From Escherichia phage EC3-1, in the sequence record PQ571288.1: DNA of 44,405 nucleotides. The stretch is one strand, 5' to 3'. The position numbers were made by a program, and so were the translations under genes. This document shows positions 453-480 of the stretch, piece after piece; within the stretch, counting starts at the first letter, position 1; every line of letters begins with the position of its first letter. The notes below the pieces were generated by a model. It made no database searches. It was not told where the DNA came from and saw only the letters and a program-made list of their open reading frames with translations.

Positions 453-480
453 TAGCGCCCCGCTTTATGGCGGGGCTTTA
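453..480 (+). repeat. 28-nt hairpin element TAGCGCCCCGCTTTATGGCGGGGCTTTA (copy 1)
   Basis: 7-bp GC stem GCCCCGC/GCGGGGC plus short T run; exact inverted copy at 32228..32255. Confidence 0.7.

Follow-up and report, generated by a model that had tools for sequence, protein, structure and literature searches.

An inverted 28-nt repeat in two control regions of coliphage EC3-1 forms a conserved two-tier RNA hairpin

Escherichia phage EC3-1 (PQ571288.1) carries one and the same GC-rich 28-nt sequence in two non-coding regions, each upstream of a different block of genes. The question raised by this repeat is what such an element does at two distant sites, and whether it does so as DNA or as RNA. 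The window analysed here is the whole record of 44,405 nt, which consists of a 44,264-bp genome plus a 141-bp overlap between its ends. EC3-1 is a virulent phage of the genus Kagunavirus (Guernseyvirinae), most closely related to K1H, K1G, K1ind2/3 and LM02P1. The literature on relatives offers only in-silico promoter and terminator lists together with gene-level RNA-seq; the one transcriptome paper on a relative gives gene-level counts only.

The repeat copies and their settings

The 28-mer TAGCGCCCCGCTTTATGGCGGGGCTTTA is found at 453-480 on the plus strand (locus 1), and its exact reverse complement at 32229-32256 on the minus strand (locus 2); the original prediction had the first copy right and placed the second at 32228..32255, one base too far left. 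These are the only two matches in EC3-1, even with up to 3 mismatches allowed. That the exact repeat lies in non-coding DNA was confirmed, and a chance repeat was ruled out, as none of 100 dinucleotide shuffles contained any 28-mer match. A covariance model of the hairpin also reported two copies only in EC3-1, at 32220-32268 (-) with 77 bits and at 441-489 (+) with 65 bits. The two copies are mutually inverted and 31.7 kb apart, and both lie in divergent intergenic regions, where each is oriented as the block downstream of it, just as had been claimed. Copy 1 is followed by the HTH/primase-helicase/DNA polymerase operon, which starts at 634 (+), and copy 2 by the i-spanin/o-spanin/scaffold/capsid operon, which starts at 32208 (-) and continues through the major capsid gene to the tail genes. 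With two copies, a match between copy orientation and downstream operon has a chance expectation of 50% and is weak evidence. The first start codon is 153 nt away at locus 1, with promoter-like sites between, and 20 nt away at locus 2 (Table 1).

Beyond the 28-mer, the two intergenic regions have nothing in common but a 68-nt promoter module (81% identity), which serves the gene pointing away from the hairpin. Wider homology of the two regions was ruled out, their interiors failing to align. The repeated regulatory units of EC3-1 comprise the promoter module GTGAATAGTAnCCTATTAT, terminator families and the 28-mer hairpin. Compared with K1G and Ent1, a small divergent gene (32528-32835) with its own promoter module and terminator is inserted beside copy 2 in EC3-1; in K1G and Ent1 the locus-2 control region comes directly after the terminator of the upstream head-gene operon. 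A search for a host origin found no hairpin copy in 5,426 complete E. coli genomes, and the hairpin is therefore phage-specific.

Table 1. Features of the two control regions and the first genes after them (positions in the window; promoters and activator sites are predictions)
Feature	Position	Strand	Details
Promoter-like site, locus 1	345..374	+	TTATCA-18-TAAAAT; hexamers invariant, spacer varies (EC3-1, K1G, K1H, L043)
Full two-tier hairpin, locus 1	445..485	+	lower helix GTACT (445-449)/AGTAC (481-485)
28-nt repeat, copy 1	453..480	+	upper two tiers: TAG/TTA, C-T mismatch, GCCCCGCT-TTAT-GGCGGGGC
Back-to-back promoters with overlapping -35 hexamers	544..592	both	leftward TTGACA-16-TAAAAT, 571 to 544, 11/12 consensus positions; rightward TTGTCA-16-TATTGT, 565-592
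HTH (excisionase/MerR-like) gene	634..813	+	first gene of the rightward replication operon after copy 1
i-spanin gene	31822..32208	-	first gene after copy 2; from ORFs/translations and relatives' annotation
Full two-tier hairpin, locus 2	32223..32265	-	lower helix GATAAG (32265-32260)/CTTATC (32228-32223)
28-nt repeat, copy 2 (ancestral)	32229..32256	-	exact match; 20 nt upstream of the i-spanin ATG
Core of structured non-coding leader	32316..32432	-	small 5' hairpin and long irregular hairpin tipped GGGAC-GUAA-GUCC
Candidate late promoter P2	32433..32461	-	-35 TTGACT 32461-32456; 17-nt spacer ending TGc; -10 TAAGCT 32438-32433
Repeats upstream of P2	32460..32513	-	palindrome AACTATTCGAATAGTT 32475-32460, touching the -35; TATTCC at 32513-32508 and 32504-32499

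The distribution of the copies divides the expectation of conservation in related phages. The locus-2 copy was found in ~168 phage records (Escherichia, Salmonella, Raoultella and Shigella phages), nearly always as the only copy, whereas the locus-1 copy with its flanks is clade-specific and occurs in 9 records only (K1G, K1H, K1ind2/3, LM02P1). Likewise, the covariance model located two copies each in K1G, in K1H and in a relative from a metagenome (loci L043 and L045); every other genome to which it was applied had a single copy. Kagunaviruses of the phiEc4 type have, in the place of locus 1, a leftward paralogue of the locus-2 promoter and leader. Based on the record distribution and this phiEc4-type arrangement, locus 2 is ancestral and locus 1 is a recent duplicate specific to the K1G/K1H clade. 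In EC3-1 and K1G both copies have the loop TTTATG, but in K1H and in L043/L045 the two loops differ (TTTAGG vs. TTTAAG), so exact identity of the copies is not kept everywhere. The locus-1 copy itself is unchanged except for one loop base among EC3-1, K1G, K1H and L043, in which nearby spacers vary. Covariance model R2, which misses TS6-type hairpins (these were aligned separately), returned no extra or distant hairpin copies beyond those expected, and the Serratia-like loci L059, L086 and L099 show nothing upstream of the spanin gene that is clearly a two-tier hairpin.

Structure and conservation of the hairpin and its leader

Both copies follow a common plan: a lower helix of 5-6 bp, a 3-nt 5' bulge, 3 pairs, 1 mismatch, a GC upper helix of 7-8 bp and a UUAU-type loop. 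The locus-1 RNA reads GUACU-guu-(28-mer)-AGUAC (445-485; bulge GTT at 450-452, tail UUUAAGUACC), and the locus-2 RNA GAUAAG-gac-(UAG-c-GCCCCGCU-UUAU-GGCGGGGC-u-UUA)-CUUAUC (32265-32223; bulge GAC at 32259-32257, tail UUUACUUAUC), for a total helix of ~17-18 bp (6 + 3 + 8 pairs at locus 2). Minimum-free-energy folds reached -23.0 kcal/mol (z -3.8) at locus 2 and -22.1 kcal/mol (z -2.9) at locus 1, the hairpin core has 8 pairs (7 G-C) and -16.5 kcal/mol, and the antisense fold is about equally stable. The lower helices of the two loci are unrelated in sequence and stand in the same register. By our own estimate from base-pair odds, a same-register 5-bp lower helix would arise by chance at locus 1 with a probability of ~0.01-0.04. 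This low figure suggests that at both sites the whole shape is under selection.

Judging by pairing that is kept while sequence changes, the hairpin is conserved as an RNA structure. Among ~40 Kagunavirus-type sequences, the stem is invariant and the fifth loop base may be T, A, C or G. The upper helix, GCCCCGC/GCGGGGC, shows compensatory changes to GCCCTGC/GCAGGGC in L101 and L127, to GCCCGGC/GCCGGGC in Jerseyvirus, and to GCCCGAC/GTCGGGC in L085 and L090, and each lineage, and locus 1 as well, forms the lower helix from a sequence of its own. TS6-like phages, L108/L113-like phages and Hafnia phage TS33 have a different hairpin at the same position and on the same two-tier plan; in this set 97.5% of cells are paired and 4 pairs have changed on both sides, 3 of them in the lower helix. 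The distance from the end of the lower helix to the i-spanin start codon is 14-18 nt in Kagunavirus, Jerseyvirus and TS6/TS33-like phages, with or without a U tract, and the locus-2 hairpin of EC3-1 ends 14 nt before the i-spanin Shine-Dalgarno/start region. The argument from an exact repeat to a function is upheld at locus 2 by the ~168 records, the compensatory stem changes, and the terminator-type scores and a relative's terminator annotation described below. A protein-binding site, one of the functions initially suggested, is disfavoured: G-U pairs, the asymmetric, one-sided bulge and pairing kept despite changing sequence argue against a site bound as double-stranded DNA.

The hairpin of locus 2 closes a longer conserved region. 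The ~310 bp upstream of the spanin start codon are near-invariant in 29 phages, whereas neighbouring coding DNA varies freely. In minus-strand order this region holds two TATTCC repeats, a palindrome, the candidate late promoter P2, a leader of ~198 nt and the hairpin. P2 was missed by a simple consensus promoter scan and read from the sequence; it coincides with the 'Host promoter1' annotated in fBC-Eco01, and its extended -10 pattern, TGnTA(A/C)(G/C)CT, is kept with a -35-like hexamer in Kagunavirus, Jerseyvirus, L105 and TS33. The predicted transcription start lies near 32426. Clusters of GGAATA/TATTCC occur in EC3-1 only upstream of P2 and at 31693-31729, and similar repeats precede the homologous promoter in other genera. 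The repeats upstream of P2 are candidate activator sites, and the GGAATAAnnTATTC repeat sites are candidates for protein binding.

The terminal two-tier hairpin lies ~50 nt 3' of the leader core, and an AU-rich segment just 5' of it, CGCCGUUUCUAUGUUUAAAUGAUAAGG, is near-invariant. Covariance model R1, derived from Kagunavirus sequences, matched Jerseyvirus leaders with E ~1e-11. In the leader alignment 97.7% of cells pair, vs. 30-46% when partner columns are slid, and 13 of the 32 pairs have changed on both sides. The covariation score was reached by none of 500 shuffles, for an alignment that was fitted to the model, which somewhat favours structure. Many leader pairs are of the G-U kind and can form only in the strand whose transcription runs toward the spanin gene. 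A 38-aa leader ORF (fBCEco01_09 in a relative) was rejected as coding, with a 1-nt deletion in L025, loss of the ATG in L047, and absence from Jerseyvirus. Rfam 15 gave no match at gathering scores over the whole EC3-1 sequence and only chance-level matches at both loci (E of at least 0.9), and no tRNAs were found in EC3-1. Because the leader is structured, non-coding, near-invariant and supported by covariation, the hairpin is the last module of a conserved leader RNA.

The early control region at locus 1 offers predicted promoters on both sides of the hairpin. The promoter-like site upstream of it might, on the tentative evidence of its hexamers, direct a start near 381 and an RNA of ~100 nt ending at copy 1, with no notable fold besides the hairpin. 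Downstream, the predicted promoter pair at 544..592 is conserved in EC3-1, K1G, K1H and L043. Its leftward member would transcribe copy 1 antisense, the direction without a U tail, and the transcripts of that promoter would carry a leader to which the predicted ~100-nt RNA is antisense.

Termination, processing and read-through

The original prediction named a terminator or attenuator among several mechanisms, which sequence data cannot separate. Terminator scores were obtained with the d'Aubenton Carafa rule, combined with current energy parameters, so that they are only relative: +17.3 for locus 2 and +9.7 for locus 1, compared with +4.6 to +19.9 for the operon-end terminators of EC3-1 itself. 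In a simple terminator scan, locus 2 passes with a U-only tail score of 3.0 and locus 1 fails with 2.58; locus 2 was the top terminator-like match (8 pairs, 7 G-C) in a scan of 20-40 kb. The fBC-Eco01 record annotates the locus-2 hairpin as an ARNold-predicted terminator. The U tail is invariant in Kagunavirus. In EC3-1 only three consecutive U residues come after the stem, and the tails start UUUA(C/A); the lower helix pairs the U tract, a pairing without a role in the termination step itself. Both EC3-1 copies look like usable but imperfect intrinsic terminators. However, terminator features are not kept in orthologues: the hairpins of Jerseyvirus (tail UUAGCG, scores -3 to -17) and of the TS6/TS33 type (no U tract, -41 to -70) retain the fold and both helices and lose the U tract. 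The conserved function therefore cannot be intrinsic termination, and what the subfamily conserves, as read from these alignments, is fold and position, not the U tract. Terminator character, in short, agrees with the EC3-1 scores and the ARNold annotation and does not extend to the other Guernseyvirinae genera. Moreover, a terminator in this place would stand 20 nt ahead of the capsid operon and so of the most highly expressed genes; it would have to be leaky or overridden, and would need regulated read-through.

The most likely reading, which we regard as about as probable as not, is that both copies are RNA stem-loops that act as leaky terminators (attenuators or insulators), with protection of RNA ends as a side benefit; both the termination itself and the extent of read-through are here what we infer. 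At locus 2, transcription from P2 near 32426 would produce the ~198-nt structured leader, which the hairpin would end or attenuate. Because the hairpin immediately precedes the spanin/head/tail operon, RNA polymerase must read through it for the late genes. At locus 1, the clade-specific duplicate would end the ~100-nt RNA started near 381, termination there would keep rightward transcription out of the promoter pair at 544-592, and the short RNA would be antisense to leftward transcripts. The fully paired two-tier hairpin, once transcribed, may also protect the adjoining RNA end.

The main rival account of the same structure, doubtful but possible, sees in the hairpin no terminator but chiefly an element for RNA processing or stability in the late-operon 5' UTR, either as an RNase III-type site or as a protective 5' stem-loop following cleavage in the AU-rich stretch upstream. 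The mRNA end would be fixed 14-18 nt before the spanin start codon, and an early transcript would be treated likewise at locus 1. Such a role is the best account of structure kept without a U tract. The two-tier geometry and the 14-18 nt spacing are kept in Kagunavirus, Jerseyvirus and TS6/TS33-like phages regardless of that tract, and lineages without it show compensatory changes in the lower helix (97.5% paired, 4 double changes in the whole set). It is also consistent with a locus-1 lower helix rebuilt with the same 3-nt bulge and with the near-invariance of CGCCGUUUCUAUGUUUAAAUGAUAAGG 5' of the hairpin, and a strong terminator directly before capsid genes would presumably be counter-productive. 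Nevertheless, the helix of ~17-18 bp is below the ~20 bp usual for T7 RNase III sites, the U-rich tail is invariant in Kagunavirus, the EC3-1 element scores as well as the operon-end terminators of the same phage, and at locus 1 a link to translation start is absent because 153 nt, with promoters between, lead to the next start codon. The distinctly less probable idea of a regulated antitermination switch, with locus 2 as its terminator in the manner of lambda PR'-6S RNA-tR', would have a constitutive extended -10 promoter yield a ~200-nt leader stopping at the hairpin; late in infection, the leader RNA (as HK022 put) or some phage protein that escaped recognition would confer terminator resistance on RNA polymerase, and the resistant polymerase would pass the locus-2 hairpin as well as later intra-operon hairpins. 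The order of promoter, ~198-nt leader, terminator-like hairpin, spanins and head/tail genes fits this switch, as do leader hairpins that begin a few nt after the inferred start and are conserved with covariation in two genera, further same-strand terminator-like hairpins downstream in the same unit (29861 to 29840, 25512 to 25493), and others in the upstream terminase/portal unit (34394 to 34379, 37807 to 37792). A second -10-like hexamer could serve as a sigma-70-dependent promoter-proximal pause signal (TAAGCT-ccacc-TGAGCT here, TACGCT-acc-TACGCT in Ent1), but TGAGCT has no A at its second position, and the hexamer repeat also supplies the first leader hairpin with its 5' arm, a role that explains its conservation.

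The switch meets further objections. EC3-1 has more than 50 genes, and a PHROGs scan that covered 30 small proteins of its two early arms recognised no Q-like or other antiterminator family, the only regulator being the HTH protein at 634-813; in Jerseyvirus and TS6-like phages there is nothing to antiterminate, because their leaders end in hairpins without U tracts; and the GGAATA-type repeats beside the -35 suggest activator control instead. Riboswitch-style alternative pairing with the terminator arm was also rejected, as type A/B leaders inspected by eye contained no conserved anti-terminator segment. Very improbable, finally, is a role of the repeat as DNA (an operator, a recombination or packaging signal, or an origin element), or a locus-1 copy that is a neutral by-product of module exchange. 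The inverted placement of the copies 31.7 kb apart, their location in regions rich in repeated promoter modules, typical of mosaic joints, and the restriction of the locus-1 copy to 9 records, with other Kagunaviruses lacking it, are in keeping with such an origin. However, pairing is preserved through sequence change, G-T wobbles and a one-sided 3-nt bulge are unlike a double-stranded DNA palindrome, and the loop base varies freely. A neutral copy is likewise hard to reconcile with new locus-1 flanks that restore the 5-bp lower helix, with the chance of ~0.01-0.04 arguing for selection, and with a copy unchanged but for one loop base in EC3-1, K1G, K1H and L043.

A broader proposal, which we offer as speculative and rather unlikely, extends from the leaky terminators to the leader as a whole. 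The Guernseyvirinae late-operon leader would be a cis-regulatory RNA of ~200 nt not described before, with the 28-mer as its terminal module: a small 5' hairpin comes first, then a long hairpin with a GNRA tip, and an AU-rich linker leads on to the two-tier terminal hairpin. This RNA would govern spanin/head/tail expression by RNA- or protein-mediated read-through or by processing, and the K1G/K1H clade would have re-used its module as an early antisense-RNA/insulator unit. Its role may be analogous to that of lambda PR'-6S-tR' or HK022 put, in virulent siphoviruses without a recognisable antiterminator.

Comparison with known regulatory hairpins

Taken alone, the hairpin is a routine regulatory stem-loop, already a predicted terminator in fBC-Eco01, and its novelty is modest; the leader RNA is of greater interest. 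A large group of therapeutic-candidate coliphages and Salmonella phages has its best-conserved non-coding DNA in a stretch of ~310 bp, and it is this stretch that the hairpin closes. If leader and hairpin control late expression, whether by read-through, processing or mRNA stability, they would give a first handle on temporal regulation in Guernseyvirinae, and also a small, transferable part with which the expression of phage genes could be tuned. A covariation-supported leader RNA without an Rfam family, together with promoter-side repeats, provides parts worth bench work.

The hairpin resembles the Rho-independent terminators that serve phage genomes as intra-operon attenuators or insulators: it has a GC-rich stem of 7-8 bp with a loop of tetraloop size, U residues after the stem, and A-rich sequence on the upstream side paired with the U-rich flank. 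It departs from such terminators in having only three U residues, in orthologous hairpins without a U tract, and in a conserved second helix and 5' bulge that fall outside the terminator definition. In the late control of lambda, the PR' promoter gives rise to the 194-nt 6S RNA, which ends at the tR' terminator unless Q antitermination intervenes. The anatomy of EC3-1, and only the anatomy, is similar: a promoter, a non-coding RNA of ~200 nt, a terminator-like hairpin, lysis genes (here spanins) and head/tail genes. Unlike lambda, EC3-1 is virulent, has no Q homologue among the 30 proteins, carries its holin/endolysin elsewhere (40005-41044) and has a highly structured, conserved leader, and terminator character is not conserved across Guernseyvirinae.

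RNase III processing hairpins are known from phage T7 mRNAs and from the lambda N leader. The EC3-1 hairpin is like these sites in having two helices with an asymmetric interruption, in standing between upstream RNA and the next ribosome-binding site, and in the conservation of structure rather than sequence; it differs from them in being shorter (~17-18 bp) and in having a one-sided 3-nt bulge instead of an internal loop. Lambda OOP and P22 sar are short cis-antisense RNAs that end at their own terminators. Locus 1 would share with them a predicted RNA of ~100 nt with its own promoter-like site (345-374) and an end at the hairpin, as well as full complementarity to the 5' part of transcripts from the predicted leftward promoter (571 to 544). 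In contrast to OOP and sar, however, the overlap at locus 1 would cover an untranslated leader and not a coding start, the arrangement is limited to the K1G/K1H clade, and both promoters are predictions. Lastly, the PeSL elements of T4-type phages are repeated cassettes of a promoter and a stem-loop. EC3-1 likewise has short regulatory units repeated at module borders, and the small gene at 32528-32835 was inserted along with a promoter and a terminator; the 28-mer differs from PeSL elements in that it has only two copies and lies inside its module, not at the edge.

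The leader RNA of the late control region

Upstream of the spanin/capsid operon, the RNA that begins at the predicted late promoter contains a structured non-coding leader (see table) with almost no variation across Kagunavirus, and a covariance model found it in Jerseyvirus. Covariation within the leader is strong, and Rfam holds no family for it; it is a candidate for a new cis-regulatory RNA motif. GenBank records of several relatives place proteins inside this non-coding region (under window 32257-32450; search hits H45, H49, and H50; positions 1654-1770 of the relative's locus L001), where the products named are a hypothetical protein of 38 aa, a "RusA-like resolvase," and a "DNA polymerase III sliding clamp/beta subunit." We rejected the annotation of the 38-aa ORF as spurious on the grounds of its conservation pattern.

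Clusters of the motif GGAATA/TATTCC occur at only two places in the genome, one upstream of the late leader (32460-32513) and the other upstream of the scaffold gene (31693-31729). Each contains a GGAATAAnnTATTC-type palindrome adjoining a -35-like TTGAC(T/A), and the clusters may be binding sites of a putative late activator. The second is followed by the hairpin AATCCGGGTGGCCCGGATT, a terminator according to the annotation of phage Ent1.

The early control region and its counterpart in phiEc4

The early control region, which precedes the HTH gene, has a structured element of its own: positions 226-329, closed by GTTGCCGT/ACGGCAAC, are predicted to adopt a three-way junction of high stability (-48.7 kcal/mol, z -5.1), and the surrounding block, 165-357, shows ~94% conservation in more than 100 Kagunavirus records. 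Two predicted back-to-back promoters with overlapping -35 hexamers lie closer to the gene. The leftward one matches at 11/12 positions and is among the top sigma-70 matches of the window, equaled by a pair of TTGACA-17-TATAGT sites (4014 and 6750). Between junction and promoters, 30 nt (388-417) share 73% similarity, in inverted orientation, with 34353-34382; here the early-region sequence GGCTTTCTTATCAC... looks like part of a terminator-like hairpin (34394 to 34379), namely its 3′ arm and tail. The stretch 388-417 may be the remnant of a decayed terminator.

Kagunaviruses of the phiEc4 type have a second, diverged late promoter and leader in their early control region, occupying the place of the EC3-1 module that bears the 28-mer, the exact repeat shared by the two control regions. 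The tip hairpin of this second leader copy has compensatory changes, GUGCC-AUUA-GGCAC.

Positions of the control elements and associated features
Feature	Position	Strand	Details
Structured non-coding leader RNA	32316-32432	-	part of conserved block ~32223-32515, upstream of spanin/capsid operon
Back-to-back promoters, overlapping -35 hexamers	544-592		TTGACA leftward, TTGTCA rightward; upstream of HTH gene
Second late-promoter/leader copy	1712-1831 of L055 (locus of phage phiEc4)	minus strand of locus	oriented toward early-left genes
GTGAATAGTAnCCTATTAT promoter module copies	177-198, 3973-3994, 4017-4038, 6750-6779, 10312-10341, 23348-23383, 32528-32565, 43026-43072
AAGGCCCC-nnnn-GGGGCCTT bidirectional terminators	12983-13002, 25493-25512, 32808-32827
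One-way hairpin related to these terminators	7477-7502		precedes DNA polymerase gene
Small membrane-protein gene, 70 aa	32591-32803		unit with own promoter module and terminator, 32528-32835

Repeated modules and genome organization

The palindromic promoter module GTGAATAGTAnCCTATTAT, repeated in the window, has -10 hexamers on both strands, with possible partners TTGACA on one side or TTGCAC on the other. The motif is listed as a "phage RNA polymerase promoter" in the fBC-Eco01 and Golestan papers. No phage RNA polymerase-like protein was found among the ORFs and the relatives' annotation examined, and the module resembles a sigma-70 promoter that may be joined to an operator. The bidirectional terminators likewise form a near-identical family, located at convergent gene junctions.

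Both ends of the window carry the same 141 bp (1-141 and 44265-44405); the assembly is that of a 44,264-bp genome, circularly closed or terminally redundant. Within this genome, an insertion separates the late control region from the head-gene operon: the unit carrying the small membrane-protein gene. Because this unit is absent from K1G and Ent1, its layout is moron-like.
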